This document shows positions 3,115 through 34,821 of a DNA stretch of 64,000 bases, one piece after another. Both the position numbers and the translations under genes were made by a program. Positions within the stretch are counted from its first letter, which is position 1; every line of letters starts with the position of its first letter. The DNA lies in contig JBAZMQ010000002.1 of NCBI GenBank assembly GCA_041649675.1, positions 65,920 through 129,919 of the forward strand. The letters are read 5' to 3'. Source of the stretch: Patescibacteria group bacterium. Lineage in GTDB: Bacteria; Patescibacteriota; Patescibacteriia; Buchananbacterales; UBA6539. The notes below the pieces were generated by a model that did no database searches, was not told where the DNA came from, and was given only the letters and a program-made list of their open reading frames with translations.

Positions 3115-3261
3115 GTTTGTTTCTCCCTTCGGAAACCTATGTTTGCCACTGCTCTCCGTGGCTCGAGATTTTCTCTGAATTTCAACAATATTGGTACTAA
3201 AACAATAACATGATAATATATCATTTATTAAACCAAATGTCAATAATAAAATACCTAAAAA

Positions 3262-10813: not shown

Positions 10814-13800
10814 TTATGGCCAAGTAAATAGTTTTTTACAATAAGTATGGCTAGATGAGGTGTAATTACTGCCGCCATTGACTTTAGGATCACCCCAAAC
10901 TGGCCAAGGATGTTGGCTGGCAAAAGCACTATATAAACTACTAACCGCTGAACCGGTATTAGCATTGCCATCTTTGCTATTTTGCCAAGACGCACCAGGG
11001 ACAAAGCTGACTAATTTCCAGTCAGTAGCCGGTAAAGCTAAATCACCATCATTGATAGTATAGCATTGACTGGGCAAGCTGCTAACCGCGCCAACATGTG
11101 AATAAGACTCAGACCATTTCGGCACGGTTCCAAAGACACTGCAAACATCAGTACCGGCGTAATTGGCAAAAATCCCTCTAATCTGGCGATTAACCGCTGT
11201 GGTATAAGCCTCAAAGGCTAAAACATTAGCATTGGTTCCAGTATTTAAGCTAAAGCCACTGGGTTTAAAATAAATCTTGGTCCCCTTGCCACTTGAGTAA
11301 GGAAAAGTATAAGCCGAATCACTCCCCTGGCCGCTACTGCCAATAATCTCACCTTTCTGTTTATAGCCATTTGGTAAAAACAAATTACCGGTCAACAGAT
11401 TACCGTTAAGATAAATATTCAAATAATCATCAGCGCCAAAAAGTAATAAACAACTATTACTGCTGTCACAGCTGCCTTCAGCACCACCTAAGCAAGTATC
11501 ATAGACAACATCGCTGGTCAAACCGCCAACGCAGATATAGCCATTGCTGTAACAACTGGTTTTACCTTTAGCCGTATCAATAGTACAGGTTGAACCAACA
11601 TTACTGATATGGCTGCAGCCAAGCGCACAAATGCCATCATTATCTAAATCATTGCTTGAGTCATAAGGACAAGGATCAGTTATATCAACTAAGCCGTCAC
11701 CGTCAGTGTCGCTACCACTAATACATTGATTAATATCTTGGCAAATACAACTACCGCCGGTACAACCGGTTGTACCATAACATTGATTTGAACCATTTTT
11801 GTCTTCTTTGTAGCCATTAATTGCCACGCAAGTCCCACTGGTCCCAGCTAAACTACATTCCGAGCAAACAACACTGCAATAGTTGTTGTTTGCTTGGCAG
11901 CTAAAACTGGTACCAGCACCTTGGCAAGTACCACAACCACTGCAGCTTAAAGCACTAGCCTCACAATTTAGAGTTGTAGCGTTACATTGGCTGCAATTAC
12001 CCAAGCAAGCCACGGCTGATGCCGAATAATTACAAATATTACTGCTGCAAGAAGCAATAGCACAGTTGCCCGGAATGCCAGCCAAACAATCATTAGCTGT
12101 TTGACAACATAGGGCGCTACCCGACTGTTTGCCAACACAGCTTGAGTCAGCACAATCAGCTTTACCGTCACAATTATTATCTAAACTGTCTGAACAATAT
12201 CCGGTTTCAGAAATATGATAAGTTGGAATTGTTGTATAATCGCAGCCTGGCCACTGACCAGCGGTATTGCAGGTTTCCTGAGACCCAGCACATACTCCCT
12301 GTTGGTTGGCACAGTTCCGTTTTGTCCCCGGATTACAAGCCCAGCAATCAGCATCAGCGCCGTCAACTTTACCGTTACAATTGTTATCTAAACTGTCTGA
12401 ACAATATCCGGTTTCAGAAATATGATAAGTTGGAATTGTTGTATAATCACAGCCCAGCCACTGACCAGCGGTATTGCAGGTTTCCTGAGACCCAGCACAT
12501 ACTCCCTGTTGGTTGGCACAATTTTGTTTCTGCCCGGACGTACAAGTCGCGGTCGTATTACAAATACCGCCATTACAGAAAGCTGGCGTTGGCCCGCACA
12601 AAGCCGGGCTAACTGTATCTAAGCTTCCATTATGAGCAGCAATGCATGATCCCCCTGCACCATCAGCACAGGCTTGGCAGGGTTGGCTACATTCATCTTC
12701 TAAGCCAATAGCGGCAGTTCGGTTAACACAGCTACCAGCCGAGCAAAGCGTACATTGGCCAGCACATTTGTTACCGTCCGGAGCGTTAGGCTGAACTTCG
12801 CAATAGTGAATATTGGCTCCTGACAAACCACAGCGATAACAAGCCGAACAGTAATTGTCATTTTTCTGGCCCGAGCCTGAAGCACTTTCCCAACAACAAA
12901 TCGCACCGCCAACCGTCGGCTTACCAGCACAGACAAAGTCATCGCAATCGGCATAGCCATTGCAGTCATTATCTTTACCATCATTACAAACTTCTAAAAC
13001 CGTCGGATGAATACCAACATCATTGTCATCACAATCATTGCCCGCCCGGTCACTATACTTAGTCCCCCGACAATCAGGTTGACCAGCTACCTGGCTGCAA
13101 GTACTAGCCTGAGTACTGTAATAGTTATCATTGTCAGTATCAGTATAATAAGTAACTGTTTGAGTTGATTGATCAATACACCTGTTATTAATACAGTCTT
13201 TGCCAGCCAAACAGCCACAATCCTTGCAACAATTACTGGCACTCTCATTATATTCACATTTATTATTACCACAAATAATTGTCAAACCCTTATTGACGCT
13301 ACCTGCCGGGCAAGTGCCGTCCGGACCAGTAATCACAAACTGACCCCAGCCACCAGCCGGCCCATCCGAATCCACTCTCACCACATTACTGTCTTCTTGC
13401 CAGGAACAAATATTATACCAAGCAGGATCTCCAAGAGCCATATAGGCATATTTGCCGGTACTGGTAAGCTTAAAGGTTACTATGTCACCACACTTAAAAG
13501 TTATTCCGCTGTTTACACCGTTGCTGTCCAATAATTCCCATTTTTCCCAACTATTGTCAGTTACATCACAATTATTTTCGCGAACATGCATATATGGTGT
13601 ACCTTCAGTTTCGGCAGAAAGGCCACAGAGTAAATCGTCTTTGCCTCTAATGTAGATTGTATCATAGCCATATTGAGTGCCAGCCGTTCTCATACAAGCA
13701 TGATTTCCGGCTGTAACTTCGCCGTGAACAAGGTCAATACCGACAAATTGAAATACTTCACGCTGATCGCTGCTACCATGCAAAAACAAAGGTACCGTAC

Positions 13801-16800
13801 CAATCCAACAATCAAGCATAGTACTCATACAATTAACTTCAATATCGTCAGCTTTTAACCAATTATTAACACTATTATCAAGAACTTTTAAAGCAAAAGT
13901 GTCTTCATATTTCAAATTACATTTTATTTCATTGGAAAAATTTTCACCAACCGAACAGCAGCCATCACCGTGCGTGCCAATGCAAGGCTTTGGCTTCTGG
14001 CAGGCTTCACCGGTGTTGGAATTAATACAAACCACATTAACTTCGCCACAATTACCCGGACTACAAGCCCCGGGCAGGGCACAAGCCCAACCGCCACCGG
14101 CTTCTTGGCCATGGCAGACCGGCGCCGCGACCGCCGAAAACGGACAATAAGACAAACTTAAATCTTTAATTGTTACCGTAGTGCCAGCATTCTGTTTTAT
14201 ACCCTCAACTGAAACATCAATATTTTGTGAATTGGCAGTACAAACAAAAGATGGTACCGCCAAATTTACTGTACTGCTATAAGCGCCAGTGCTGTATTGA
14301 TACTCCCCTAAAGTATTTAAACCTGATTTAAATTTAACCCGGATTGGATTAGTCAAATTGTCAATAATTTTAGTAGTGATTCTATTATAAAAATCAAGTG
14401 CATTGTCTGAATACAAACAGTAACCGCTACCATCACAAGGACCGCCACAATCACTGCCAGTCTTGCAATTAGAAGACAATCCGTCCAATAAGTTATAATC
14501 AACTCCATTACCAAGACCTAAAGTATAAATTTCAACTCCTTGGTTTTTGGCCGCTGTCGCTGCCGCTTTGGCCGCTGTCGCTGCCGCATTACTCGGGTCG
14601 CCGGCCATCACTAAAATCATGACTTTCGTGGCTGTGTTTGGATTAGGCATGCCATTTAATATATTGGTACCGGTGATAATTCCTAAATTTATCGGCGGGG
14701 GGCCGGCATTTAGATAGTTATAGGTGCCAATAGCTGTCTCAATAACTCCGCTTGGTGTAATTCCGGCCGTTGACGGATCACCGGGATTATTTCGACATTC
14801 ATTAGTTGTAACGCTTTCACCATTGGTATCTTTGCCGACCCAACGGTTGGTATTATTTTCATTACAATCATGATTGGAACAAATTCTTTCACTTTGGCAA
14901 AGCCACCTTAAACTATCATCACCGATATCACCATTCATGTCTGCTCGATAATGAGCCAGACCAATTCTCAAATATTGGTTAATTTTTGGTTCGGCCAAAA
15001 ATTGGTTGGCAGAAAATTGCAAAGCCACTTTAAAAACTGGAAAATTGATACCCATAATGGCGGATAGGTCAGTGACATAAACAATAGAGATATCATCGGT
15101 AGTTGAATGACCGGAGATGGCAACGTTAAAATCAATCTTATCACCAACCTGACAAGCCGGAATAGCAAAAGTACCAGATGACGAACCATAGTTAAAAGTC
15201 AGAATATCTGGATTAGTAGCTTCCACGGTATAAAAAGGCGGACAATACCTAATCTTTTTACAATTCAAATCACAAGTTAAGGCGTTAGGCGGATCGCACT
15301 CTTCAAGTTGGTTAGTACATTTACTAGGATTACTGTTACAAGCCTCCGCTTTATTAGGATCACAGGCCGTGACTTTATCATCACAGCGATAATCAGTTTG
15401 AAGGATGCCATCGCCGCAACCGCCGCCAACGGGCCAATCCTCCATCACGCGGCAATTATCGCACCATCGGTGCATATTGGTTCCGGAGTAACTATCAGTT
15501 GGCTGAACGCCATTAATAGTTTCACAGGGTAATTTACATTTTGTTGGATCACCACTACAGCTATTAATGTCTGATGGATCGCAAGCTTCTTGGGTTCTTT
15601 CGCATTTATAACCTTGCTGACTATTGGCTAAGCTCATATTAGCTGCACTGTCACCGCAATCACAGGCTTCGTTGGCCGCTTCAATTATACCGTTACCACA
15701 ATATTCTGGAGCATGAACGACTTTAGTTTCCGAACAATTATTACACCAGCTACATTCGGCGCCATAACTAGTACCAACCGTGCAAGCAGCGTTATTAGCC
15801 GTGCTGCAAGCAAAAGGATTGACTGGCGGCGCGCCATAAGGCTGAGTAACACCACAATCACAAACTTCGCCACTATCAATCTTTTTATTACCACATAAAT
15901 CACAAATATTGCCCTGCCAATTACCATTAGAATCGGTTTGGTCAGGATTATAACAAGAAATTTCAATACCAAACTTATCCAGGCAAGTCGCGCCACCCAC
16001 GCCGCCAGGACAATTGTCTAAATCACCCTCGCTAAAACTATTTTTTGAAACCTGGCAACCGGCAAAATGTTCCTTTTGATCAGAATTTAAATTGGCCGCT
16101 GGATTAGAAACGGTCGCTTTAGTATAAAAAGTGTAATCACCAAAACTATCTCGATCAAAATCAATACAGTCATTACAGATATAACCAACTTGACTGCCAT
16201 CATAGTCTTCTTGAAATGGATTATAATATTTATAAGTATTATCAGTAAATTGTTTACAAGTTGGCTTGTTTGACGGACAACAAGTTTGTCCGGACGGACA
16301 AGTAGCTTGGTAATTGCTGGTACAAGCAATCGCTACTGGATAATTACCATTAAAAGTACAATAACCTCGGCGATCATTAGAAACACCATTTCCGTTAAAT
16401 GGCACGGTACAATTGGAATAAGTTGAATCGCAATCGTTATTTTGATGACAACGTTGACCGTTTCGCTGGCCAGAAGCATTTTGGCACCAACCGTTTAAAT
16501 AAGGTGAACAGTTGTCTTTGGGACAAATAGTCGGATCATTAACGCCAGTATTAACATCCCAGTACCTGTCTCCGTCAATATCCGTACAAGGATCACAAGC
16601 ATTACCATAGCCGTCGCCATCACTGTCGCGTTGGTCAGGATTATAAACTGTTGGGCAATTATCAGCATTGTCACCATTATCACAAGCTCCATCATTGTCA
16701 GCATCACCCGAACAAGTTAAATCGCAAATATCGCCCAAGCTGTCGCCATTGCTATTCTTCTGATCAGGATTATAACAATCAACTGGTTTTATCGGACAAG

Positions 16801-28800: not shown

Positions 28801-31378
28801 GATCGCAAGTTTGTTGGCTTAAATCTCTAGTGCAAGCAAAATTAGTCAATTTTTCACATTGACAAGTAACCTTATTACATTCATACCCTTGATCACAAAG
28901 CTGATCACTTGGGTTACAAACTCCGGCATCAATACTGCAAGGCCCTGGATTAGTACCGGTTTTGAATGTCCAATTATAAGTTGATTCAGCTGACAAATTA
29001 CCGTTACCAGCCTGACAGGTACAATTACTAGCCGAATCACAAAAATAATCGCTGGGACAACTGCCTGGTTCGCAAACTGGAGTTGTTGTATCAGCATCAC
29101 AACCATTGGCCGGATAACAATAGCAGTCATTTTTTAAAGGATCAGCGGTTTGGTGTACCGAATCATAACAATAATAACCAGGTCCGCAACTACTTTGGGT
29201 TGGATTACATTGGTTATCAGAAAAATTGTTGTTATCACAAGAGACTAAAGTCTCACATTTGCATTGATTATTGCACCATCGGCCAGAACCGCAATTCTGA
29301 GTTGGTACGCAAGTCGAAATTTCACTGCTACAATCAAAGGCTGAACCTTCAGTGCCAGACTCAACTTTAAAGGTTTTAGGATTACTGTATTCTGTACCGA
29401 CTTTAACCCGGACACCGACATCAGCTGGATTTATTTGCGGTACGCTAATACCGGTAATCCCAGTTTCACCGGTAAAATTCGGCGTGCCACCAGATAAAAC
29501 CGCGCCAAAATAAACTTGAGTCGTAGCTGCAGGATAAAATCGAATGCCTGCCAAAGCAACTAAGGCACCAACTTTACCGTTGACTGGATTGATGCTACAA
29601 AGTCCGGGTCGGACAATATTATTAATTTTAAAATCATCAATTATTGAACCACGACTATCATTAGTCTGGTCTGATAAACCATTTAAAGACGCTTTTCTTG
29701 TAACTTTAATCGGGCCTTTAGCGGCTTGGTTTGGTACGACCACAACAATTTCATTATCAGTCCAAGAGTTGTTACAATTAGCGTTGACTTCGCTAGCTAA
29801 ATTTGCCAAAACTGTTGGATTGCCGGCACTGTCAGAAAAATAAACTTGACCAAATTGATCGCCAAAATATCTCCCGCCAATCGTGATAATATTGCCAACT
29901 GCTCCATCGCCTGGTGAGACCCAATCAATAATCGGCACATCTTGGCAAGTACAATTAACTATATCGGCAAAACAAACCCGGTTGTCAGCGCAAACTCCAG
30001 GCTGACAAAGCGGTTCGTCTGAAGTATCACAATTTTCACCGGCGCCCGGCAAACGGCATTTACAAGTTGTATTGTCACATTGCAGACCAGGTTGGCAAAG
30101 ACCTTTGACCGGATCGCAAGTTGGTTGAGTACCGGAATCACAAGACTCACCAACGGCAGCCAAACAAGCACTGGCGTCACGGCAACTAAAGCCTTTGCAG
30201 CAAACTGAAGGACAATCACTGTTTTGCTGGCAAGAAATAGCAAACCAAATTTTATTACTTTCCTGGTTGGCCGCATCTTTAACGCTGACATAACCGGAAA
30301 CTGCCGCTTGAGGCACTTGAGGTGAACTAATTAAAGTATCGGCCCAAGAGGCATAAATATTTGCTGCTTTATTTTTAGCAAAGAATAAACCATCAGTATT
30401 TTCGGAAGTAGTAGCCGGGTCAGCCCCAAATCTAATCCCTTCAGCTTTAACCAAGTCCTGATTATTAATGCCGCTGCCAGGAACAATGCAAGCCAAGGCT
30501 GGTTTAGAAACATCGGCTAAAACAATTGTAAACGGCAAAGCAGAGCTAGTCTGGCTAGTTACCCCATTGACCACACTGACATCCCAAATCTGTAAATTAA
30601 TATTTGGTACTTGAATCCGGGTCAAACTATAATTGTCTGCTCGCTCAGCCCAAACCGGGCTGCCGCTGCATTGAACAATTTCAGCATCATTACCACCAAA
30701 TTTAACCTTACTGACACCGGCCACATAATTACCAAAATACCAACCTTCAATCGTTACATAATCGCCAGGGGCACCTTGAGGCATGCCGCCCAGACCCGAT
30801 CCCCGAGTCGCTTCAATCTTACAAATCTTTGGTGTTGGGGTTGAAGGTTTGGGACAAGTTAATTCAGGAATAGCACAATAAATTTCATCGCCACATTCAG
30901 TGGCCGTATATTCTGTACCAGTGCCTTGGGCATTACATTTACTATGACAGCTAGTACAAACATTAGGCGTACAACCGCTGCTAGTGCCATAGTTAGCACC
31001 AGTGGCTTTAATCAAATTATTAATAATAAAACTGGTAATCATAAAAGCCGAGAAGATGATTACCAGCCCGATTACTGCATTAACTAAAATTTTCTTAGCG
31101 GTGCTAATTTTTTCAACGTTACCGCCAGCCGTCATCCAAGTATAACCACCGTAAATTATAATCAGTAAAGAAATCACGCCTAAAAATCCCAAAACGACCC
31201 GAATAATTGACATCACAGTAACTCGCAAATCTTGAGTCCCCAAACCACTTAACGCCCCATAATTTATGCCCGTATCCAAAGCCAAAGCTACTTGAGAAAT
31301 CAAAAAGCTGCCAATCAGAATACCAAACAGGATTGGTAGAATTAACTTTTTGTTTTTAATTTTTTGATAAACCATCAA
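10814..31378 (-). CDS. giant (6854 aa) secreted/surface multi-domain Cys-rich protein with N-terminal pilin-like (signal + 2 TM) anchor domain
   Basis: Single uninterrupted 20.6-kb ORF. The N-terminal roughly 130 aa (LALDTGINYGALSGLGTQDLRVTVMSIIRVVLGFLGVISLLIIIYGGYTWMTAGGN...KKILVNAVIGLVIIFSAF) is near-identical in architecture to the N-terminus of the upstream gene. Recognisable modules include IPT/TIG-like, about 13 CGNGxxExGEECD (myxo-type Cys-rich) repeats, a TSP3 run (DNCPTVYNPDQRDSDGDGYGNACD), MopE-like CxDxxDNDCDG motifs, CBM4_9-like (NGDFEDG), a LamG-like region and a possible vWA. Antisense ORFs inside are spurious. Confidence 0.85.
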   Translation of the reverse strand: MMVYQKIKNKKLILPILFGILIGSFLISQVALALDTGINYGALSGLGTQDLRVTVMSIIRVVLGFLGVISLLIIIYGGYTWMTAGGNVEKISTAKKILVNAVIGLVIIFSAFMITSFIINNLIKATGANYGTSSGCTPNVCTSCHSKCNAQGTGTEYTATECGDEIYCAIPELTCPKPSTPTPKICKIEATRGSGLGGMPQGAPGDYVTIEGWYFGNYVAGVSKVKFGGNDAEIVQCSGSPVWAERADNYSLTRIQVPNINLQIWDVSVVNGVTSQTSSALPFTIVLADVSKPALACIVPGSGINNQDLVKAEGIRFGADPATTSENTDGLFFAKNKAANIYASWADTLISSPQVPQAAVSGYVSVKDAANQESNKIWFAISCQQNSDCPSVCCKGFSCRDASACLAAVGESCDSGTQPTCDPVKGLCQPGLQCDNTTCKCRLPGAGENCDTSDEPLCQPGVCADNRVCFADIVNCTCQDVPIIDWVSPGDGAVGNIITIGGRYFGDQFGQVYFSDSAGNPTVLANLASEVNANCNNSWTDNEIVVVVPNQAAKGPIKVTRKASLNGLSDQTNDSRGSIIDDFKINNIVRPGLCSINPVNGKVGALVALAGIRFYPAATTQVYFGAVLSGGTPNFTGETGITGISVPQINPADVGVRVKVGTEYSNPKTFKVESGTEGSAFDCSSEISTCVPTQNCGSGRWCNNQCKCETLVSCDNNNFSDNQCNPTQSSCGPGYYCYDSVHQTADPLKNDCYCYPANGCDADTTTPVCEPGSCPSDYFCDSASNCTCQAGNGNLSAESTYNWTFKTGTNPGPCSIDAGVCNPSDQLCDQGYECNKVTCQCEKLTNFACTRDLSQQTCDPDNAQCATDEFCDSQCKCEKLIACDNQIGDPLCSPNQNMCSLGRCSTSGKICRQFWGNCSGTGAPCDLATPSCPAGQTCQGDCESPETCQDIGLTFYCYNFKPSDPGYDSHKKSCYCYPGILCDNPANPASPGNPACHPDDTLCPANYRCDPNNNCTCQPGTGLPTQSTYNWTFRTGQEPGPCSKDAGICDPDDAKCGTNEICDQTTCFCKFTGYQCSSESLSCAPDNTKCQLDQFCNTKCQCQTLVACDNNSGDPICNPDQSMCTLGECSESKGLCRRWWGNCSNKKNISCSLKGICTNSHVSCLIGDPNPMVGCGTCSPIGFLPDGCGTCESDCPSGEACTSNNLTQYTCYNLYPGDAGYDSSKLPCYCYPGIRCDNPARAASPIDPACHPDDRLCPSGYVCDPKGSCFCVPSLGLPTESTYKWDFSTIYAGPQVVEMCNRTSNCNPFAVTSPSPFNRAGTDAAGWKVSTVRPDDGAVPIDVIVSARFTQKMFKPSLNNSTIALYDCSIGSRSRSSLGTEPFNKANCTLKVQTTITIEDCNYKDHLETDSNCIYLKPKDLLPANHWFALRLTASKIFGENGMRLAGNESGSDYVWAFKTRESTALSQVACLYVNPAASTLYAYDQRQTYSAHPAPLDFVCTDIRDESCNATPAYIWTNPDPNPKEADGGIRAYIVPSAKHGLTNPVDPCDTNANDNCANAAADADTFKDLPPFTYTSSTCNFTTETGTYSVSGHSELTNDFSRPYVIDRFPDCGAACLNAKIGATFSRAMDTTGGYAVNNNHMRLYICYDDPNCSADIANLVNSFTPSVMLDPAEKNNTYTGYVPCLDFNGDGKFDYCLLPDTYYRVVIDGTVRSADEHKSLAGLNFDINNDTKKDSYSWVFKTQSVYGMCLPNKINVNPADWQTDYQQKVNYSAQPMTAPDICDPLFGQRLSSYSFNWDWDTNLTPNKYDHPFCTGQEIANLISASSTLVFYCPTRNNPETLSNKLRGSCGNNVIEAGEQCDDGNLVNGDGCSSICLKEGSVSGLQGYEAILAENFDNFEANINQTASNNPFVGTAYADYQNFGIACTGDGEWCTGPAPWGAITNGGYNSSGAVYVYGNNGKSGLMKNGFSINKDHYIVKAKIKVNTAQVRGAGDPEPSAINDVGLIFGSKDFNSYWVFEWIYVGYDTNTDFQKFAIANSKAANPDNNTQGYVIKTPGRIANDGNWHDIKVEVLNSDKGAVIYGYFDDNKILTYKTDSRIEGNAGFYGFDSDSPVYFDNLEIGYYQVASGTVNVCGNGILETGESCDQGALNGLAESYCNANCLWKGNTNHNLKICGNGIVETNEECDPPGKDGCGAKCMYIGLAAGSPGCGDGRIEPGEECDTGSLLYRHCAGNYTLDCTNNSSICFKPEDCIIGSESGDGDWCSASCLIEFTARGLNFCRDSITNKFVFGQLPTDSDCSSDDYCKNNYGLTYKCVQLNTVTGNNVTSGSVCGNNQVETGEECDNGGWCSVAGFPILDKYGNPKYCNSVGSFCDLGQVCSVFSGVCSVGNSPCGTVGSACSTDGFCTNGYCMAGGNSYYTGCTNNQVCTVGNGTPINGVAKTGICLRSGCSNSCLKNGSVQDAVNASYVGAYQIAQTFNKDGETYMQCWVKENIPPKGPLGQGRLQVGNLIPPGAFGVVDRWPKCSTACLNAAMGAQFNTSTDPTTITAADNILLYECGADFNCQMATAKKVVGATVTPGNGVNGEADVRFDITLPANYNLTDINEDGVLEGGLLLPNTYYRVIIKDQVSSKGPDKLPWWGLNLDLNNDQKFDAYSWVFKTQESSSLCTIGRVAVIPTTKTVIGVERLKYYSEPWSNKDECDPINGQRLNPYFYDWDWDIHDVVSGVTAANLVTPLRQLCGNAVIETGEDCDDANLTGGDGCSAICLNVPVDSSKCGNGKIDLGEECDPSDGAYCGADCLLTGSQKGITVCGNGTKEVGEECDEGKSNGTEGTGCTTICTLSGAIAGLGSNCGDGQITKGEACDTGEKSQGKIPMTGDVGNCTGVYQGPDLTNDLVNHPCSTFNTKEDCEKIDLSNPSNNQLMWCYWTGSNCRVRPCLLETGRANGSGNSGQSVCGNGSTEKGEECDDGGWCQDINNQWTNCTAKDTSACKSGSDCTPYNGYCAKTDPELGAIPCDSNLDCITGSLGDCVLDGCSNMCLHSGSVQNGNRVGPHQLVQTLNFFSVSQEVKEEIRAWHKLQKDIVGVGELTVIGQASVPFEIVGQQPPHDPNFNSLQCRNAVIYTVFTHELNLDTIKGSCQKSYACASSPAVNCTGHDASGNSVPDNTKCSKSDCSSQSCWQAAGCFEKNDVCKFDNLILKKCGLGRSYGNCQNDPAVSENQISSLSYKKLSGNCNANSQCEFKVAGRTYTAANSECKYDTSCMGSEILVNGLVSNVLDANSSYQLFVKADEGGVLSRTGDSLTKKVCQAESDLYCTTWNFATYGDFCHCDYIGVTIDSSSGGTETTNDYFTCAGNDCGANTITKLDDDVAPDYICAAGIRAGLVCSKLETASKDCPNTEAATTFDACVANSSDYYQPTAGNQHAYQAICYDINNPSGIRIPLSSFGTSFSWLGIDPSNLIYLTNPFPGLCSLDDSFACLSDSECISAGKGTCLPNTSNDIYYVTPGQDPGTPKGKNGDSAVNVLALERTCGNTSLFCAESHNCQPGIECRAKVANSQIVNVTNFICDNPWPDIANFPYQDNASNFRMPNTNFKMYYCRDFGESGFSDDLPPLSLSPIILGKNDPIKSLKEFIFPIGDQDINSTKVVVASKNGQEYDPVKTACFCNNINGSTSACTSNLPINIGTTDSLCCGWYEGIADTYQCSAAGSRFASLWEQNKGTAAWVYKFDSVADGNYRLNVTSHNNRDFSIYSYCDANNDGMLSVGENTACDPGTCPTGVSCLHGVTHVFQIYIDGVLAGKISNLATENNTSGELALGHLASGNHEIRIRWVNDWGDWNHKDGDGNNDPLDSNTLISRVNLIKLEGDINSSSDALGIKVLPNPLHLSPMTWYKSGLCGGNANINNLCFNDADCSQTNLFNNGDFEDGTAGAEIGHCINGVKTINNSNVHDWLIHCSVGSSYPEDRDLNAKLEYKTEAARSGNLGTRLTIINQSTPKKGWGAELIGSPGEVRNLAPGNYAVSAYVRSAQQVILTAVVTSGATYPMICSNANCSFGSRGGGVCSTLLKADKWEKVTCNFSLKETTNVSFAVIGKNETGSVVDIDDLSLTSTCQMNLPTKGAPKAFTIDGYQAVLDGRTAYIGAPNLTIDSAGNDFLYSNIYLISHSQNATGPIKEIFNRILDSTGQSGALSFNANFNNYRMCSDIGYYDGTNILCGSQDVLPYTALGNSQFDYCNTLVAPVTCQSNDGIKHGCYWSNEINACLAKVCSPIYCNNNFDCPNLNCLANKEKVVRDAQRYGDLRDIQLSLGTYLKTKGIYPLLSGGTYIASTTFSVWPSWNQTFAKELGGNLFTDPLNYFGSCGDFYCDFNGNGTIDNSETFGQIYTYDKNLSWKNISVGSDAGFMATAGRPQVGYFDPLHDNKTILWYGSKVYAFTGDSWASGALLTDYFPDPAFKPVVGFYHAFDQTVSGSGQTTPGRIVLFDENGEEYIYPNVNNPTDHTSWQHVDRTNADQSLGLPVDFKPVVGYYTQFGAMIVGAHVIGQIHLWDKDGKLCIYPTLASAEGTKLIFKCFGPGETLPAAFKPTMGFYHPLGGIVTGADTEGRNVIGDKDGNMYIYPENSNGQLVWGYHEAGTLGYPKEFIPTIGFYNYKFNDDTGKEYLFGSSGECRPGVVSNCGNNPGICLPKDADKQLTCWDNVAKQYSCPAEMSVYAYKSASEGALYGLYTNFEYTGQGTWRSLPISHCLIGTTDTGKVCQSQADCATGQTCASVLPNFYELPVACNRLNFEIHQATIGGGVSTPDCNGVKRCYGGTNDPAFDDCTDGDILACPDHGPGTFCSGDADNDGSCDYLNSTTSFDNCNPATACPIKPVDCYNPDQKNSNGDSLGDICDLTCSGDADNDGACDNGDNADNCPTVYNPDQRDSDGDGYGNACDPCTDIDGDRYWDVNTGVNDPTICPKDNCSPYLNGWCQNASGQRNGQRCHQNNDCDSTYSNCTVPFNGNGVSNDRRGYCTFNGNYPVAIACTSNYQATCPSGQTCCPSNKPTCKQFTDNTYKYYNPFQEDYDGSQVGYICNDCIDFDRDSFGDYTFYTKATVSNPAANLNSDQKEHFAGCQVSKNSFSEGDLDNCPGGVGGATCLDKFGIEISCYNPDQTDSNGNWQGNICDLCGNKKIDSGEVCDCGVTQPYGAPPVNPFACSTANNAACTVGTSYGAECSWCNNCSETKVVHAPEYCGNGIIEAANEACDCGDSAANMSLANSQQGYKCERTQEACDPSDINSCSGDPTKCKLPCETINGVQPTDSYSGTNMHRWCDNCRVMEDWPVGGGCGDGILQTDYRCDDKVTACDPNKAEACNSNPSKCTNQLEECDPPNALTCDLNCKKIRYCPPFYTVEATNPDILTFNYGSSSGTFAIPACQVGDKIDFNVAISGHSTTDDISIVYVTDLSAIMGINFPVFKVALQFSANQFLAEPKINQYLRIGLAHYRADMNGDIGDDSLRWLCQSERICSNHDCNENNTNRWVGKDTNGESVTTNECRNNPGDPSTAGITPSGVIETAIGTYNYLNAGPPPINLGIITGTNILNGMPNPNTATKVMILVMAGDPSNAAATAAKAAATAAKNQGVEIYTLGLGNGVDYNLLDGLSSNCKTGSDCGGPCDGSGYCLYSDNALDFYNRITTKIIDNLTNPIRVKFKSGLNTLGEYQYSTGAYSSTVNLAVPSFVCTANSQNIDVSVEGIKQNAGTTVTIKDLSLSYCPFSAVAAPVCHGQEAGGGWACALPGACSPGNCGEVNVVCINSNTGEACQKPKPCIGTHGDGCCSVGENFSNEIKCNLKYEDTFALKVLDNSVNNWLKADDIEVNCMSTMLDCWIGTVPLFLHGSSDQREVFQFVGIDLVHGEVTAGNHACMRTAGTQYGYDTIYIRGKDDLLCGLSAETEGTPYMHVRENNCDVTDNSWEKWELLDSNGVNSGITFKCGDIVTFKLTSTGKYAYMALGDPAWYNICSWQEDSNVVRVDSDGPAGGWGQFVITGPDGTCPAGSVNKGLTIICGNNKCEYNESASNCCKDCGCLAGKDCINNRCIDQSTQTVTYYTDTDNDNYYSTQASTCSQVAGQPDCRGTKYSDRAGNDCDDNDVGIHPTVLEVCNDGKDNDCNGYADCDDFVCAGKPTVGGAICCWESASGSGQKNDNYCSACYRCGLSGANIHYCEVQPNAPDGNKCAGQCTLCSAGSCVNRTAAIGLEDECSQPCQACADGAGGSCIAAHNGSLDTVSPALCGPTPAFCNGGICNTTATCTSGQKQNCANQQGVCAGSQETCNTAGQWLGCDYTTIPTYHISETGYCSDSLDNNCNGKVDGADADCWACNPGTKRNCANQQGVCAGSQETCNTAGQWPGCDYTTIPTYHISETGYCSDSLDNNCDGKADCADSSCVGKQSGSALCCQTANDCLAGIPGNCAIASCSSNICNYSASAVACLGNCSQCNATTLNCEASALSCSGCGTCQGAGTSFSCQANNNYCSVVCSECSLAGTSGTCVAINGYKEDKNGSNQCYGTTGCTGGSCICQDINQCISGSDTDGDGLVDITDPCPYDSSNDLDNDGICALGCSHISNVGSTCTIDTAKGKTSCYSNGYICVGGLTSDVVYDTCLGGAEGSCDSSNSCLLLFGADDYLNIYLNGNLLTGNLFLPNGYKQKGEIIGSSGQGSDSAYTFPYSSGKGTKIYFKPSGFSLNTGTNANVLAFEAYTTAVNRQIRGIFANYAGTDVCSVFGTVPKWSESYSHVGAVSSLPSQCYTINDGDLALPATDWKLVSFVPGASWQNSKDGNANTGSAVSSLYSAFASQHPWPVWGDPKVNGGSNYTSSSHTYCKKLFTWP
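12173..12590. repeat. near-identical tandem duplication (2 x about 207 bp) inside the giant gene
   Basis: 12173-12379 and 12380-12586 are about 95% identical over about 150 bp. They encode repeated 69-aa modules ...NCANQQGVCAGSQETCNTAGQW.GCDYTTIPTYHISETGYCSDSLDNNC.GK.D... Confidence 0.85.
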
Positions 31379-31399
31379 ATATATTTTGGTTAATCAAGA

Positions 31400-34300
31400 T
31401 TATTGGACACATTCTTCACCGCTTGGACAGTCATCTTTGTTATCACAACCAATAGCTGTAGTCGTCTTGCAATGACGGCAAGGAATTGCACTCTTAGAAC
31501 CGTTGCAACAGTAAGGTTCAGTTCGACTAACCTGGCAACAACTGCCTGGATTGCTTGCTAAATCACAAAAGTTAATACAATGTTGACCAACGGGGCAATC
31601 CAAGTCACCAGTACAGGCTAAATTAGTTGTGGCGCTGCAATGGGTATAAGAATCACAAGTTTCACCAGTCGGACAATCACTATTCAAATTACAAGCTGTA
31701 GTTTTAGTTAAGTTGCAATTACCATTCAAAGCCTTTGGACCTTCGGAAGGCAAATAACAATTTTGATAGACATCCTGAATACCAGAACCAATCTCCGTAC
31801 CGTAATCAGTTACTTCAGCCAGTTTGGTATGGAAAAGTAAAGTCTGAGTTCGGTCGGCGTAAGTATCAAGCGGCGGCAAATCAATATCGCGTTTACCTAC
31901 CCACCAACCGACTTGAAAAGTAGATGGATTAACCAAGGTAACATAACGTTTATTCAAACAACGTTTAGAACCACAATCACTGTTTTGTTCACAAAAAGTC
32001 TGGGTGGTCTCATTTTTACATTTATTATCCTGGCAAGTCTCGCCCTGCTTGGTGTTACAGTCCTTACTTTCTGTACTCGGGTCACAATAGCAATAGCCAT
32101 CGCGATAGTTACTGCCGGATTTGAGAGTGCTGCTCATCATTACCTGATCAAAAGCCGCTTCAACCGGTAAAGTTAAGCTGACGCCATTGGCCGCAATGTT
32201 TGGACCAACCGAGACTAGATTGGCTGGTGTTAATTTAAGACCTTTGTTGATGAAAAAATACCAAATTAAATCATCACCTTGAGAGTCAGGCAAATTAACA
32301 CACTTATTGCCACTGCCACAGGTACTATCACTAGAACAATATTTTGTCTGATCGTTGGAACAGACTTTGTTTAAGGCATAAGCCGGCTTGCCGCTTTGGT
32401 TGCCGATTTCCGTATTAACATCAATGTAACCCGGACCTTCAGCCCGACCAAAAATACTGCCGCTAGCCATGGCATAAATATTATTATTACCGTTAAAAGA
32501 ATTATTGGCGGCATCAGTTAAACCGCCGGCTGGATTTGCCGCCTGCGGATAAAAAGCATTTACCGTATCCGGTGCGGTACCAAAAACTCCCTGACAAACT
32601 TTGCTGCCGTCTGCTGCGGCCACACAAGTGGTAAAACCAGGGTCAGTACATTTCTTTTCAGCATCATCACAATCCTTTAATTTACCGGCCTTAATAAAGA
32701 CTCGGTATTTGGTGGCGTCAATATCAGCCAGCGCCGGCAAACAATAAACCTTATCGCCGCAGGAATTTTTTACTGATTCACAGCTACCACCGCCACAAGT
32801 TAAAGACTCACTGCAAGCTTGACCATCTTTGGTTCCGCCGTAGCAAATCTTGCATTGATTTTCTGGAATAAATTCAACTGTTTGGTATTGATTACTGACT
32901 AAAAATTTACCGGCCACATCGGTCCAGGTTGGAGTTTGGGTCGGATTAGAATTACTGTTATATTGGACTTTAATTGCTGTTCCGGCTTGAGCCGCAATCG
33001 GATCAATTGGTTCATTAAAATCAATAGTAATAATTGTATTTCTTGGTTTATCAGCCGCGTCGTTGGCTGTAGAATTCAATTCTGAGTCACTGCCAATAGT
33101 AGTGCTGATTGTTGCCCAATCAGCCCCGCTTGGCTTAGTATCAACCATAAAATTACCAGCATGACCAATAATGCCTGATGTCAAAGTGACTTTATTGCCA
33201 TCAAGTACCGCGGTGATTGGCGGCGTCAGGCTGTCAGCTGCGATTTTTTTCTGAATATTTCCAGCGGTAACAGCTGGCGCACCAACGGCAATATCAGTGC
33301 CAAAAGTGTAAACTTTATTAGCAATCCGTAAACCATCTGGCTGGGTAAAAGATGTTAAGGTTACTTCCCATTGATCAGCGCCATTACTAGGATTAATAAA
33401 GGATAAGGTAATTCCATCGCCTAAAGTTAAGGTGTTATTAGCGATAGTGTAGCTAGACGGTGCCCCGTCGCGAAGGGGCGACCAAGTGGCCGCAGCGCTG
33501 GTTTTAGTCGCTCCACTATTTAGCAACAAAGTAACCTTTCCGTTATAAGTACCATTATAATTACCATTAGTCACAATTTTTGGCATCGCACTTGGACTTT
33601 CACCATCCATGTTGGCGGCACTACAAGCCGGGTCAGCCATATCAATTTTGCCATTACTATTATTATCAATTCCATCCGCGCAGGCATAAGTTGGCGCTCT
33701 TCTAACAGCACTAACCGTAGCGCCACTATAAGTCCTGGGAGTACCAGTAATAGTAATTTGGGCTATGGCCGCAGTGCCAATAGTGGCAGAATACTTGTCA
33801 GCTTCATTATCCGGCTGCGGAAAAACACCACTGTTTTCAACTGGGTCTAAATCTAGGTGAGTGCCAATTTCAAACCGCCACATGAAATAATTACTACTGC
33901 CAGGAAATGCCGTATCACCATTATCTTTCTTTACTCCATTACCTAATTTGACAGCATACCAAACATTATTAGTGCCATCACCCAAATACTGAACGGGTTG
34001 GAAAGTAAAGGTTAAGCCGTCAACACTAGAGGCACTAACATTGGTTAATTTATTCTTATCAATTTCGGCTTCTGACAGTTTATAAATATAAGGATAAATC
34101 TTGACATTATCAGCATTCACTAAACCAGAACAAGGGGCAGCCACGCTGCAAGCTTCTGCCGCCTCTTTAATCAAAGTATCCGGTTTCATTTTGACTTTGA
34201 AAGTCACCATGATTTTGGTATTTCTGGCAACATCACGGGCTAACGGCAACGGATAAACACTTTGGATGATTCCATTGCCTAAGTGACCGCAGTTTTCGCA

Positions 34301-34729
34301 GCCAATCGGCGGCTGGACAGTACCACCCGGACCACCCGGACGAAAGCTGTCTTGAAGCATATTAATAATAAAGCTAACGATACTGAAGGCTGAAAAAATA
34401 ATTAGCAAACCAATGGCCGCATTACGTAAAATCCGTTTGGCTTGATCAATTTTTTCAGCGTTGCCAGCTGAAGTCATCCAAATATAGCCGGCATAAATGA
34501 TGATTACAATAGCAATAATGCCAACTAAGCCCAAAAAGATTTGGATAATCCTCATGATGGTCACCCTGATGTCTTGAGTGCTTAAGCCAGTGGCCGTGCC
34601 GTAACTTAAACCGGTGTCTAAAGCGGCCCAAACCGGAGAAACCAACATTAAAAATAAAACTACCAGTCCAAAAATAAGCATGGTAGTTCTATTTCTCTGG
34701 GAACTGAAAAAGTTTTTTTGTTTATTCAT
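31400..34729 (-). CDS. large (1109 aa) surface protein with the same pilin-like N-terminal domain (paralog of the giant gene's N-terminus) and a Cys-rich C-terminus
   Basis: N-terminus AALDTGLSYGTATGLSTQDIRVTIMRIIQIFLGLVGIIAIVIIIYAGYIWMTSAGNAEKIDQAKRILRNAAIGLLIIFSAF mirrors the giant protein. MopE-like CADGIDNNSNGKIDMADPAC motif present. SD GGGAG 8 nt upstream of the ATG. 21-nt gap to the giant gene. Confidence 0.8.
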   Translation of the reverse strand: MNKQKNFFSSQRNRTTMLIFGLVVLFLMLVSPVWAALDTGLSYGTATGLSTQDIRVTIMRIIQIFLGLVGIIAIVIIIYAGYIWMTSAGNAEKIDQAKRILRNAAIGLLIIFSAFSIVSFIINMLQDSFRPGGPGGTVQPPIGCENCGHLGNGIIQSVYPLPLARDVARNTKIMVTFKVKMKPDTLIKEAAEACSVAAPCSGLVNADNVKIYPYIYKLSEAEIDKNKLTNVSASSVDGLTFTFQPVQYLGDGTNNVWYAVKLGNGVKKDNGDTAFPGSSNYFMWRFEIGTHLDLDPVENSGVFPQPDNEADKYSATIGTAAIAQITITGTPRTYSGATVSAVRRAPTYACADGIDNNSNGKIDMADPACSAANMDGESPSAMPKIVTNGNYNGTYNGKVTLLLNSGATKTSAAATWSPLRDGAPSSYTIANNTLTLGDGITLSFINPSNGADQWEVTLTSFTQPDGLRIANKVYTFGTDIAVGAPAVTAGNIQKKIAADSLTPPITAVLDGNKVTLTSGIIGHAGNFMVDTKPSGADWATISTTIGSDSELNSTANDAADKPRNTIITIDFNEPIDPIAAQAGTAIKVQYNSNSNPTQTPTWTDVAGKFLVSNQYQTVEFIPENQCKICYGGTKDGQACSESLTCGGGSCESVKNSCGDKVYCLPALADIDATKYRVFIKAGKLKDCDDAEKKCTDPGFTTCVAAADGSKVCQGVFGTAPDTVNAFYPQAANPAGGLTDAANNSFNGNNNIYAMASGSIFGRAEGPGYIDVNTEIGNQSGKPAYALNKVCSNDQTKYCSSDSTCGSGNKCVNLPDSQGDDLIWYFFINKGLKLTPANLVSVGPNIAANGVSLTLPVEAAFDQVMMSSTLKSGSNYRDGYCYCDPSTESKDCNTKQGETCQDNKCKNETTQTFCEQNSDCGSKRCLNKRYVTLVNPSTFQVGWWVGKRDIDLPPLDTYADRTQTLLFHTKLAEVTDYGTEIGSGIQDVYQNCYLPSEGPKALNGNCNLTKTTACNLNSDCPTGETCDSYTHCSATTNLACTGDLDCPVGQHCINFCDLASNPGSCCQVSRTEPYCCNGSKSAIPCRHCKTTTAIGCDNKDDCPSGEECVQ

Positions 34730-34784: not shown

Positions 34785-34821
34785 ATTATATTCTTTAAAG
34801 TCTCCTTTTAAACTTTAAAGA

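Follow-up and report, generated by a model that had tools for sequence, protein, structure and literature searches.

In modular type IV pilins, a binding module is grafted C-terminally onto the pilin and the filament subunit itself becomes the adhesin, as with PilB and PilC of Streptococcus sanguinis, which carry a vWA module and a lectin module, respectively. These pilins, with a class III signal peptide and one helix at the N-terminus, form a class unrelated to the VirB2/TrbC-like hairpin. The T4SS pilins of Patescibacteria are small (~100-190 aa), encoded in arrays of 2-11 with a mean identity of 25% and often found near virB4 (Wang et al. 2023, PMC10633639; Quinonero-Coronel et al. 2025, PMC12102498), and neither paper mentions pilin fusion to large ectodomains. 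Giant surface proteins are also on record: Absconditicoccaceae, which are Patescibacteria, have giant cell-surface adhesin-like proteins (PMC13059738), Marinomonas MpIBP is a giant RTX adhesin (PMC4083281), and a pilin-hairpin anchor is reported for neither group in these papers. Giant genes of Omnitrophota are, according to the accessible part of a preprint, implicated in cell-wall degradation (West-Roberts et al. 2023, bioRxiv 10.1101/2023.11.21.568195).

Here we describe two neighboring surface-protein genes that take up ~2% of the genome of an ultrasmall groundwater Patescibacteria bacterium and that form a pilin-anchored tandem, widely conserved in relatives yet undescribed in the literature. 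They lie in the window, by which we mean the whole 64,000-nucleotide stretch of DNA analyzed. A sequence-only reading had proposed two tandem genes on the minus strand, following rpsU and yqeY; the ORF listing reproduced their coordinates and lengths, and gene coordinates placed yqeY (34822-35277) and rpsU (35284-35523) upstream of the pair. The genes and their N-terminal features are as follows:

34785..34812, minus strand: promoter-like site TTTAAA-16-TATAAT, within the 92 nt that precede gene 1 (consensus scan, 10/12 matches)
31400..34729, minus strand: gene 1, 1109 aa from an ATG start, pilin-anchored Ig-like rod protein (ORF listing)
34625..34729, minus strand: gene 1 signal peptide, aa 1-35, with a hydrophobic segment at aa 12-42
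34349..34624, minus strand: gene 1 VirB2/TrbC-like hairpin, aa 36-127 (profile matches, model, hydropathy)
31403..34312, minus strand: gene 1 ectodomain, aa 140-1109, a chain of Ig-like beta-sandwiches including Big_5, with a Cys-rich C-terminus
10814..31378, minus strand: gene 2 (the giant), 6854 aa from TTG, pilin-anchored mosaic protein (ORF listing)
31280..31378, minus strand: gene 2 signal peptide, directly before the hairpin
31004..31279, minus strand: gene 2 VirB2/TrbC-like hairpin, aa 34-125 (PF18895, likeness to the gene 1 module, hydropathy)

In the giant, the TTG is followed directly by an ATG at 31375, where public gene callers start (6853 aa), and the gap between the genes is thus 21 nt from the TTG or 24 nt from the ATG. 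NCBI annotates the gene 1 product (MFA5021705.1) as 'hypothetical protein WC508_01300' and the giant (MFA5021704.1) as 'MopE-related protein'. Promoter-like sites in the region are no commoner than shuffled expectation and the gene 1 candidate is weak; no terminator-like site was found in the gap separating the two genes or behind gene 2.

The first ~125 aa of both proteins resemble the patescibacterial VirB2/TrbC-like pilins (PF18895) in having a signal peptide, two hydrophobic helices and a short basic loop. Both N-termini had been suggested to share a module similar in layout to T4SS pilins, and we found that PF18895 exceeds its gathering score of 26.6 in each (40.7 bits at aa 52-121 of gene 1; 28.4-29.8 bits in gene 2) and that the two modules are 63% identical over 97 aa without a gap (E = 2e-34). 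In gene 1, NCBIfam NF045849 reached 40.4 bits against a cut-off of 40, while PF04956 TrbC stayed below its cut-off (27.0 versus 27.9 bits). Hydropathy recovered the signal peptide and two TM helices of the first reading as three N-terminal hydrophobic segments per protein, with no convincing TM segment after the N-module in either. The gene 1 hairpin consists of a conserved LDTGLxYGxxTGL motif, TM1, a basic loop and TM2, and structure prediction, which had been proposed as a check, gave a two-helix hairpin in the AlphaFold model (helices 54-86 and 91-129). From the -3/-1 rule, cleavage of the gene 1 precursor is predicted between VWA and ALDTG.

Like the T4SS pilins of the same phylum, the two genes are tandem duplicates with diverged copies. 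Unlike them, the window copies share as much as 63% identity and sit among housekeeping genes with no T4SS gene nearby. The plan of an N-terminal pilin module followed by C-terminal binding modules is that of the modular type IV pilins, but what is grafted here is 10-60 times larger, assembly into a filament is hypothetical, and no GFTLIE-type motif is present at the N-terminus of the window proteins. The hairpin makes up 2-11% of protein length; a module known elsewhere as a small secretion-pilus subunit would serve here as the membrane tether of both proteins. A profile search with the pilin module matched 79,632 cluster representatives, and among its best 62 single-module proteins, 40 carry tails of >500 aa and 18 of >1300 aa.

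The gene 1 ectodomain contains Big_5 (Pfam, 52.6 bits) and is modeled by AF2 as beta nearly throughout after residue 150 (pLDDT 80.2, pTM 0.69); orthologues in Ca. Buchananbacteria measure 946-1092 aa. Its closest PDB structure is the S-layer protein SbsC of Geobacillus stearothermophilus (4uic, E = 8.5e-6; also 4uj6), likewise an elongated string of beta-sandwiches. Since sequence identity is 12% and TM scores are about 0.1, only the bead-on-a-string architecture is held in common, and SbsC attaches to the cell wall by an N-terminal helical domain, whereas the predicted anchor of the window proteins is a membrane hairpin.

The giant is a mosaic in which we distinguished the following regions:

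29399..29935, minus strand: IPT/TIG domains, aa about 482-660, in two stretches (PF01833, 30.3 bits versus GA 20.9)
27509..29341, minus strand: Cys-rich region, aa 680-1290, about three diverged copies of a ~220-aa unit
22469..25825, minus strand: myxo-type/DUF4215 region, aa 1852-2970, nine CGNGxxExGEECD repeats and a duplicated ~270-aa unit
18224..19066, minus strand: 'DGYxAxxDGR ... S.WPSW' module, aa 4105-4385, conserved in all giants
17399..18181, minus strand: four to five blade-like repeats of ~62 aa, aa 4400-4660, with an FxPxxGFY motif (regex, internal BLAST)
16574..16891, minus strand: TSP type-3-like Ca-binding repeats, aa 4830-4935, with NPDQxDxDxD motifs (phmmer versus PDB)
14459..15091, minus strand: VWA domain, aa about 5430-5640 (PF00092, 27 bits versus a gathering score of 23.8)
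12149..13081, minus strand: three MopE-type CxDxxDNxCxG motifs, aa 6100-6410 (PF11617, 44 bits; regex)
10817..11581, minus strand: C-terminal domain, aa 6600-6854, common to other giants (BLAST to P0122, P0123 and P0179)

The predicted TIG and MopE content was thus borne out, and other assignments held in part. The myxo-type family is present (TIGR02232 myxo_disulf_rpt, 76.8 bits; DUF4215, 27.8 bits), with 11 copies by regex and not about 13, and its region contains the DNA repeat families D1/D2. The TSP type 3 repeats match COMP (E = 4.8e-8) and thrombospondin-2 (E = 2.6e-7) in the PDB search but have no Pfam TSP_3 match. The VWA domain barely clears its threshold and its MIDAS motif (DLSAI) is degenerate, while the CBM_4_9 and LamG (Laminin_G_3) modules that had been proposed stay below threshold at 16.6 and 15.7 bits. 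The giant has 473 cysteines, with a density of 36 per 250 aa in aa 680-1290, where internal BLAST aligns the unit copies at 45-50% identity (E down to 1.5e-63); the MopE-type region holds a 207-nt tandem duplication (DNA repeat D3, 90% identity). An hhalign comparison with CPR type IV pilins shows that the DGY/WPSW module contains a helix resembling their alpha1-C (probability 90.7%, E = 1.3e-6, 42 columns). The blade-like repeats sit as an insert in this module and are missing there in P0122, P0114 and P0179; their fold is tentative, as the one module of the giant put to structure prediction gave a low-confidence model (pLDDT 53.8, and below 50 in the repeats). Roughly half of the giant matches no recognizable family.

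The window proteins resemble the Absconditicoccaceae giants and RTX adhesins in being very large, repetitive and secreted or membrane-bound, in their Ig-like, Ca-binding and lectin-type modules, and in coming from (epi)symbiotic or surface-attached bacteria. On the other hand, RTX adhesins have a C-terminal T1SS signal and GGxGxD repeats, both missing in the giant, and near-identical tandem repeats where the giant is a mosaic of diverged modules; motif checks found no LPXTG or RTX signal in either protein or in the giant's C-terminal domain. As far as the accessible part of the preprint describes them, the Omnitrophota giants are likewise exceptionally long genes of ultrasmall host-dependent bacteria known from metagenomes, and, unlike in those, searches of the giant turned up no catalytic domain, peptidoglycan-degrading or otherwise; domain searches of both window proteins returned no enzyme domain.

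A comparison with relatives showed that this pair of genes is conserved. Of 78 informative genomes from Buchananbacteria, Falkowbacteria and kin, 70 have another gene with the pilin module immediately downstream of the first, at a median distance of about 24 nt, and gene 1 occurs without gene 2 in seven related loci. The tandem usually follows lepB-hisS, which are upstream in 61-63 related loci with lepB three genes away, and precedes two small TSP3 membrane proteins. In the window these are:

10049..10789, minus strand: gene 3, 246 aa, single-pass membrane protein carrying bacterial TSP3 repeats (PF18884, 66.3 bits)
8977..9960, minus strand: gene 4, 327 aa, single-pass membrane protein that combines a TSP3 repeat (PF18884, 35.1 bits) with a C-terminal domain

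A gene 3 homologue directly follows the pilin genes in 31 related loci, and gene 4 homologues cover ~55% of its length, so the cassette is bigger than the two genes first reported. The order yqeY, ~1000-aa pilin protein, giant pilin protein recurs in loci L007-L010. The second gene is mostly about 1,500-3,500 aa in relatives (full span about 1,460-6,860 aa), with lineage-specific insertions and fusions, and giant orthologues of 4,800-6,860 aa are collinear with the window's. At least 22 loci encode the DGY/WPSW module as a third gene of its own, other relatives have it as a stand-alone ~360-aa protein (P0186-P0190), and in the window it is internal to the giant, which points to growth of the giant by fusion. 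We therefore take the giant as a product of this lineage, in which neighboring cassette genes that stay apart in relatives were fused and further modules inserted.

Together, PF18895, the hairpin model and tandem conservation support the core of the first reading, a VirB2/TrbC-like anchor on two cysteine-rich, adhesin-like surface proteins. We consider it reasonably probable that the pair is a conserved chromosomal Patescibacteria cassette whose surface proteins have the pilin hairpin as their sole membrane anchor and serve attachment or surface architecture; its lineage is Buchananbacteria-like (GTDB class ABY1). Both precursors would be exported by Sec and cut by signal peptidase I between ALA and LD or VWA and AL. 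Hydropathy and the AF2 model, together with the positive-inside rule, predict that the two helices enter the membrane as a hairpin whose short basic loop faces the cytoplasm; the whole C-terminal region would then lie outside the cell. The 1,109-aa protein would form an Ig-like rod of ~30 nm and the 6,853-aa protein a fibril of >100 nm, rich in disulfides and Ca sites, that would carry binding-type modules (TIG, VWA, TSP3, lectin-like) past the cell wall. The products are most likely membrane-anchored surface or attachment fibrils, and the names of the domains they contain suggest a possible role in adhesion or host attachment. The hairpins of one genome are 59% identical and those of orthologues from different genomes 43-45%; since they co-evolve within each genome, both probably join one membrane assembly or share a partner. 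Old gene conversion instead of co-assembly could also account for this similarity. The window hairpins bear no sign of recent conversion, with only 39% identity at third codon positions and a longest identical DNA run of 13 nt. The assembly and the two TSP3 membrane proteins may then serve surface architecture and host or substrate attachment.

A rather unlikely alternative is that a VirB4-type machine encoded elsewhere builds the hairpins into a VirB2-like filament as tip or minor subunits, such that a filament of small pilins shows off the Ig-rod and the giant adhesin. The N-modules are 35-41% identical to stand-alone 120-140-aa pilins of the same family, and hairpin co-evolution is the pattern expected of co-polymerizing subunits. 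In F-/T-pilus structures, both termini of VirB2-type pilins point outward, and a C-terminal fusion would therefore be displayed. In Ca. Southlakia, VirB2-like pilin arrays are essential and lie within the T4SS cluster (PMC10633639), the tandem-bearing relative GCA_013359225.1 (L007) is listed as VirB4-positive, and PrgB-like adhesins were not found in Patescibacteria (PMC12102498). On this reading, the window proteins would supply the adhesins that are 'missing' from the patescibacterial T4SS. However, the proposed check for VirB4, VirB6 and VirD4 came back empty for the 86-kb contig, and the conserved neighborhood holds no T4SS gene. The closest stand-alone pilins form 6-8-gene arrays next to genes for solute-binding proteins, and VirB4 is absent for 10 kb around them; this hairpin subfamily therefore shows no visible link to T4SS genes. 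An appendage of 6,700 aa would also sterically allow rare or terminal incorporation only, and pili are not known to have been seen in this lineage.

Somewhat less credible still is a purely structural envelope part, an S-layer-like or wall-spanning scaffold that would maintain cell integrity and recognize no host. The cassette is very widespread in the class, its position among hisS, lepB, rpsU, ybeY, ftsA/Z and LytR-CpsA-Psr is strictly conserved, and the best solved match of the gene 1 protein is SbsC; an envelope role fits this neighborhood and match as well as host attachment does. Against a scaffold, the likeness to SbsC comes down to a generic chain of Ig-like domains, VWA, TIG, TSP3 and lectin-like domains are binding modules, gene 2 can be missing beside gene 1, and the variable size and lineage-specific inserts of the second gene are typical of interaction proteins and not of lattice proteins.

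An exported polymorphic toxin bringing a variable C-terminal toxic domain to neighbor cells would suit the large size, modular build and some lineage-specific segments, but is very improbable given that the C-terminal domain is common to other giants and not polymorphic, that searches gave no match there to a toxin, enzyme, Rhs/YD, RTX or HINT domain and that the genes downstream encode conserved membrane proteins with TSP3 repeats in place of variable immunity proteins.

An assembly artefact or decaying pseudogene is hardly believable, even though the sequence is metagenome-derived and the giant is split into 1792 + 3127 aa in the relative L010, since collinear orthologues exist and the same uninterrupted sequence stands in three independent public assemblies (ENA, Logan and NCBI). 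Repeat collapse is unlikely because the DNA repeats within the giant gene are diverged (identity ≤90%), and a chance origin of a 6,854-codon open frame in 41% GC DNA can be considered impossible. The window matches the ENA contig at 99.987% identity over 23.3 kb and the Logan contig at 100% over 16.3 kb, where the giant's reading frame runs uninterrupted for 6295 aa up to the contig end.

Two neighbouring minus-strand genes for proteins of 1109 and 6854 aa had been claimed in the sequence-only reading, and both open reading frames are present. The features of the locus on which our analysis centres are the following:

31400..34729, minus strand: gene 1, encoding the small pilin-anchored protein, 1109 aa, ATG start
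10814..31378, minus strand: gene 2, encoding the giant pilin-anchored protein, 6854 aa counted from TTG
18224-19066, minus strand: DGY/WPSW module embedded in the giant, aa ~4105-4385
8977-9960 and 10049-10789, minus strand: two TSP3 membrane proteins after the giant, each crossing the membrane once and carrying Asn-rich linkers plus bacterial TSP3 repeats

Codon 2 of the giant is ATG, which is the start used by public gene callers and gives a protein of 6853 aa with a 24-nt gap to gene 1. At NCBI, the giant (MFA5021704.1, 'MopE-related protein') and the small protein (MFA5021705.1, hypothetical protein) are both placed on a 131.5-kb contig that belongs to a Patescibacteria MAG. We found that a Logan contig is 100% identical to the window over 16.3 kb and keeps the giant frame open for 6295 aa, up to the contig end, and that an 86-kb ENA contig matches the window at 99.987% identity over 23.3 kb. 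The DNA repeats inside the giant are diverged, the best being a single 207-nt tandem duplication at 90% identity. Together, the matches in Logan, ENA and NCBI and the diverged repeats speak strongly against an assembly artefact as the source of the giant, and no frameshift interrupts the frame in these assemblies. Promoter and terminator scans of the locus gave counts not exceeding the shuffled expectation. Overall, our findings confirm the earlier observation and support its interpretation in its core, with small corrections at the level of domains.

The proposal that both proteins start with the same T4SS pilin-type module is well supported. Within their first ~125 residues, an ungapped alignment covers 97 residues with 63% identity (E = 2e-34). 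PF18895 (T4SS_pilin), whose gathering score is 26.6, matches both proteins above threshold, with 40.7 bits for the small one and 28.4-29.8 bits for the giant. The small protein is also matched by NF045849, the NCBIfam Mbov_0395 pilin-like conjugal transfer family (40.4 against a cut-off of 40), while PF04956 (TrbC/VirB2) reaches 27.0 bits, slightly under its threshold of 27.9. Compared with the PDB, the module profile picked up short, spurious similarities to designed 'Pizza' proteins only, and no solved pilin. By hydropathy, each protein has three hydrophobic stretches near its N-terminus (residues 12-42, 54-89 and 100-127 of the small protein; 9-36, 50-83 and 91-125 of the giant), which correspond to a signal peptide, probably cleavable in both proteins, and two membrane helices; beyond these three, no convincing membrane segment was seen in either. 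In the AlphaFold model of the small protein, the hairpin helices lie at residues 54-86 and 91-129. Since the short inter-helix loops of the two proteins are basic (GNVEKISTAKKILVN and GNAEKIDQAKRILRN), they should face the cytoplasm, with the remainder of each protein outside the cell.

To place this module among its relatives, we searched exhaustively with its profile. A threshold of E ≤ 1e-3 gave 79,632 cluster representatives, and the stricter E ≤ 1e-10 gave 27,590. Architectures were counted on the 150 best of the 79,632 matches, a ranking biased to the window's subfamily. Among these 150, stand-alone pilins account for 11, and proteins with a single module carry a tail of 60-500 aa (11), 500-1300 aa (22) or more than 1300 aa (18, with a total length of up to 6860 aa). 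The other 88 are 'poly-pilins' with 2-13 modules per polypeptide (P0046-P0185; for example P0050, 1775 aa), which could be true polyproteins or read-through fusions of arrays produced by the wrong genetic code in gene calling. These counts show that long-tailed pilin-module proteins are a regular architecture and no oddity, and PF18895 matches counted as 'pilins' mix at least three architectures, namely stand-alone, multi-module and anchor of a giant. The nearest genuine stand-alone pilins among the best 150 matches, P0011 and P0013, are 35-41% identical and come from loci (L091:7558-11325 and L092:7938-10957) in which 6-8 tandem PF18895 genes directly follow SBP_bac_1 (solute-binding protein) and NTP_transferase genes, an association that is conserved; VirB4 was not found within 10 kb of these arrays.

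After the hairpin, the small protein is modelled as a nearly all-beta string of sandwich domains (AlphaFold with 36 homologues; mean pLDDT 80.2, pTM 0.69), and Big_5 is significant at residues 155-286. Among solved structures, SbsC, an S-layer protein, comes closest (E = 8.5e-6); the TM scores are low, so the common feature is the bead-on-a-string architecture only. Full-length orthologues of 946-1092 aa are found in Ca. Buchananbacteria at 38-66% identity, and remoter relatives are ~25% identical. T4SS_pilin and Big_5 are present in all of these relatives, some of which are labelled 'pilin' or 'TrbC/VirB2 family protein' at NCBI.

The giant contains 473 cysteines (6.9%) and is a mosaic in which several, though not all, of the modules named earlier could be recovered. 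IPT/TIG-like folds (TIG, 30.3 bits with the threshold at 20.9) and MopE-like motifs, of which there are three, were found as proposed. Myxo-type repeats are strongly matched by TIGR02232 (76.8 bits against a cut-off of 20.8), but we count eleven CGNGxxExGEECD motifs and not about 13; DUF4215 scores 27.8 bits against 27. On the other hand, the CBM4_9-like and LamG-like modules fall under the gathering scores in the giant (CBM_4_9, 16.6 bits against 25.9; Laminin_G_3, 15.7 bits against 27.6), and Laminin_G_3 is recorded for the orthologous giants of three syntenic loci (L007, L008 and L010). The thrombospondin type 3-like stretch matches the type 3 repeats of COMP and thrombospondin-2 in a phmmer search of the PDB (E = 5e-8 to 7e-7), while Pfam TSP_3, with its gathering score of 25, reaches just 12.7 bits, and that at a different site; PDB sequence searches with the giant halves and the small protein returned nothing besides this match. 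VWA (PF00092) scores 27 bits against 23.8 with about half of the profile covered, and the MIDAS position (DxSxS) is degenerate in our giant, reading DLSAI, compared to DLSGS and DLSVS in two other giants (P0123 and P0122, respectively).

We compared the giant with other giants and found a collinear conserved core, interrupted by lineage-specific insertions (aa 1900-2100, 3640-3780, 3900-4020, 4380-4620, 5200-6060 and 6720-6854). It also holds large internal duplications (aa 680-1035/1050-1290, 1607-1879/2521-2770 and 2118-2550/2715-3137). The DGY/WPSW module, recognized by the motifs DGYxAxxDGRxxY and S.WPSW, is found in at least 22 related loci as a third gene of its own, encoding ~900-1370 aa with a separate membrane segment (for example, L067:8243-11458), and also as stand-alone proteins of ~360 aa (P0186-P0190). 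Since the module is internal here and a separate gene elsewhere, the Buchananbacteria-type giant is a fusion of adjacent cassette genes plus inserted modules, and a clear case of gene growth by fusion of neighbouring genes. A profile search of the PDB with the module gave no match. One of its helices, VRDAQRYGDLRDIQLSLGTYLKTKGIYP, resembles type IV pilin alpha1-C (comparison with related loci; hhalign probability 90.7%, E = 1.3e-6, 42 columns); given the poor structure model here (giant aa 4105-4760; pLDDT 53.8, pTM 0.35), we treat the likeness as a lead and not as a fold assignment. Next to the module are four to five blade-like repeats of ~62 aa with an FxPxxGFY motif (17399-18181, minus strand), which are candidate propeller blades and sit at differing places across giants (~2074-2328 in P0134; ~4086-4284 in P0123). 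In GCA_034003985.1 (L010:12926-22889), two genes stand in place of the giant, one of 1792 aa with the pilin anchor and, ~360 nt downstream, one of 3127 aa; either a true fission or a frameshift from sequencing could explain this.

The locus follows rpsU-yqeY, as had been noted. Its upstream side (higher coordinates) holds yqeY, rpsU, hisS, lepB and a GDPD gene, with a LytR-CpsA-Psr gene, der, pth, dprA and topA further out, and on its downstream side (lower coordinates) the two TSP3_bac membrane proteins are followed by ybeY, ftsA, ftsZ and ribonucleotide reductase. Three Buchananbacteria-type loci have the identical order GDPD-lepB-hisS-rpsU-yqeY, then a ~1000-aa pilin protein and a giant pilin protein, with giants of 5756 aa, 4846/4826 aa, and 1792 + 3127 aa where split. 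A wider survey with one genome per species gave at least 592 stretches that are at least partially similar, and we took the best 80, all with a near full-length match. The MAGs of these best 80 are labelled Buchananbacteria, Falkowbacteria, Parcubacteria, 'Patescibacteria group' and, in many cases, 'uncultured Gammaproteobacteria', the last evidently by mislabelling. Using a local HMM of the pilin module, we found a second pilin-module gene directly downstream on the same strand in 70 of the 78 informative loci among the best 80 (median gap ~24 nt), so the tandem is conserved in relatives. Complete second genes in this set encode 1458-3452 aa (median 1956), six further ones exceed 3450 aa and leave the 10-kb flank, and in 7 of the 8 exceptions recA or ftsK follows gene 1 in place of a second pilin gene. 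Within the same best 80 loci, lepB and hisS lie ahead of the pilin genes in 61-63, and homologues of the two TSP3 membrane proteins come after them in 31. Since these homologues trail the pilin genes so often, the TSP3 membrane proteins belong to the cassette, and the conservation of the tandem, the TSP3 genes and lepB/hisS defines a unit of four to five genes that costs ~2% of a ~1-Mb genome. One MAG has two pilin tandems on separate contigs (L042, CAYGOK010000003.1; L046, CAYGOK010000025.1), and either the cassette may have been duplicated or the bin may be mixed.

We compared the hairpins of genes 1 and 2 across 74 genomes. Mean identity is 59% between gene 1 and gene 2 of the same genome, compared to 45% between gene 1 hairpins, 44% between gene 2 hairpins and 43% between gene 1 and gene 2 hairpins of different genomes. 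The simplest reading of this within-genome likeness is selection for matched hairpins, and the two hairpins may assemble together or have a common partner. Ancient gene conversion could also be the cause. Recent gene conversion is rejected for this genome, where the two hairpin coding stretches have 63.6% DNA identity, only 39% of third codon positions agree and no identical run exceeds 13 nt.

As shown or directly predicted from these data, the locus has two intact, conserved and co-oriented genes for secreted proteins whose sole hydrophobic anchor is a VirB2/TrbC-family hairpin and whose large C-terminal parts combine binding-type with structural extracellular modules. We think it rather probable that the pair forms anchored surface or attachment fibrils, leaving pilus incorporation aside. 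Both proteins would be exported by Sec and cut by signal peptidase, the hairpin would adopt an N-out/C-out topology, and the small protein would form a surface rod and the giant a long fibril; the two may associate with each other, and the pair would serve attachment or surface architecture. All that we say of the function of the pair, we infer from sequence.

Known systems differ from this arrangement in several respects. Unlike RTX/T1SS giant adhesins, which have GGxGxD repeats and a C-terminal T1SS signal, the giant has no GGxGxD motif and no HemolysinCabind match, and unlike sortase-anchored Gram-positive adhesins, which end in LPxTG, a TM segment and a basic tail, it has neither a C-terminal LPxTG nor a C-terminal hydrophobic segment. 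Type IV (class III signal peptide) pilins have the prepilin peptidase motif G|FTLxE, which is absent from the N-termini of both window proteins, although the giant has the internal alpha1-C-like helix; a search for the motif matched only unrelated ORFs in other loci. In a typical VirB2/TrbC-type pilin, the module would be about the whole mature polypeptide and the gene would lie in or near a T4SS cluster, whereas in the window the module ends at about residue 125 of proteins of 1,109 and 6,853 aa. The search for T4SS partners suggested earlier (VirB4, VirB6 and VirD4) was negative, with no virB3, virB4, virB6 or virD4 in the window, the examined parts of the 86-kb contig, or the syntenic loci L007-L010.

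These findings bear on the possibility that the proteins are true modular T4SS pilins, with their hairpins drawn into a pilus by the T4SS machine. The family membership of the hairpins, their co-evolution and the 'missing adhesin' problem all favour such a pilus, but the size of the appendage and the lack of a genomic tie to T4SS genes, both here and at the closest stand-alone pilins, speak against it, and we consider it unlikely. A purely structural role of the pair in the envelope seems quite improbable. We give little weight to a toxin or an artefact; 29 sub-pieces of the giant were searched with Pfam, and none gave a domain of the enzyme, toxin, RTX, HINT or peptidoglycan-binding type.

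Much of bacterial diversity lies in the Patescibacteria. They are apparently attached to other cells, and to our knowledge the mode of attachment of most of them is not known. Anchored fibrils of the kind that we favour would supply candidate attachment structures for a major uncultivated class, and at this locus a connection of pilin-like modules to the T4SS can be tested and shown to exist or not. VirB2-like pilins (PF18895, PF04956) have been described in 1,948 Patescibacteria assemblies, where they were handled as small proteins, and in 441 pilin arrays of 2-11 genes with a mean identity of 25%; adhesins such as PrgB were undetected in Patescibacteria by the same authors (PMC12102498). The patescibacterial T4SS is essential in the single lineage tested (PMC10633639), as epibiotic growth of Ca. 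Southlakia requires the T4SS and a pilin array (PMC10633639; review PMC12857230), and very large surface proteins bearing adhesion domains are known from other Patescibacteria (PMC13059738). Our search of the literature on T4SS pilins and giant genes in Patescibacteria and on Buchananbacteria turned up neither the fusion of pilin modules to large ectodomains nor the cassette. The new element here is a conserved cassette in which VirB2-like pilin modules are predicted to anchor giant adhesin-like proteins. The pilin module is routinely fused to very large adhesin-like ectodomains, a finding that is widespread and surprising for T4SS and CPR specialists.

Buchananbacteria belong to GTDB class ABY1, and a related genome, GCA_013359225.1 (1.01 Mb, 990 CDSs), is listed with VirB4 (PMC12102498, Table S1); the same genome (L007) carries the same pilin tandem as the window. 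We also considered that in ABY1 the VirB2-like hairpin might be a display platform, from which a VirB4-type machine would extract the matched hairpin pair and co-polymerise it with small pilins into an adhesin-bearing filament, with a ~120-kDa Ig-rod and a ~720-kDa mosaic adhesin as its cargo. We regard this as doubtful. If true, the pair would be the host-binding adhesins missed by patescibacterial T4SS surveys, and the first conjugative-type pilins onto which functional modules were grafted, a T4SS counterpart of modular type IV pilins.

Elsewhere in the window, parB and parA, with three clustered tRNA genes after them (two tRNA-Met, one tRNA-Leu), at 52977-55226 may place it near the replication origin; T4SS genes are reported near the origin in some Patescibacteria, and the window shows none. 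Two genes of the 23S rRNA-intervening-sequence family (four-helix bundle) lie on the plus strand at 42700-43098 and 47279-47635, the latter with an additional sub-threshold bAvd-like match; no reverse transcriptase was found near them, and nothing points to a diversity-generating retroelement. The stretch 1030-3243 has a G+C of 0.475 compared to ~0.39-0.42, holds ORFs without Pfam matches, including two long ones that overlap on opposite strands (2365-3243 minus, 2410-3213 plus), and may be foreign or mis-called DNA. Finally, the minus strand at 61303-64000 encodes a further large protein of surface type, an 884-aa ORF at the window's end that public callers extend to 1229 aa. It runs past the window (L003:6258-9947) and matches PT-HINT/Vint (intein-like), DUF4215, CarboxypepD_reg, bMG3-like and fn3-like domains.
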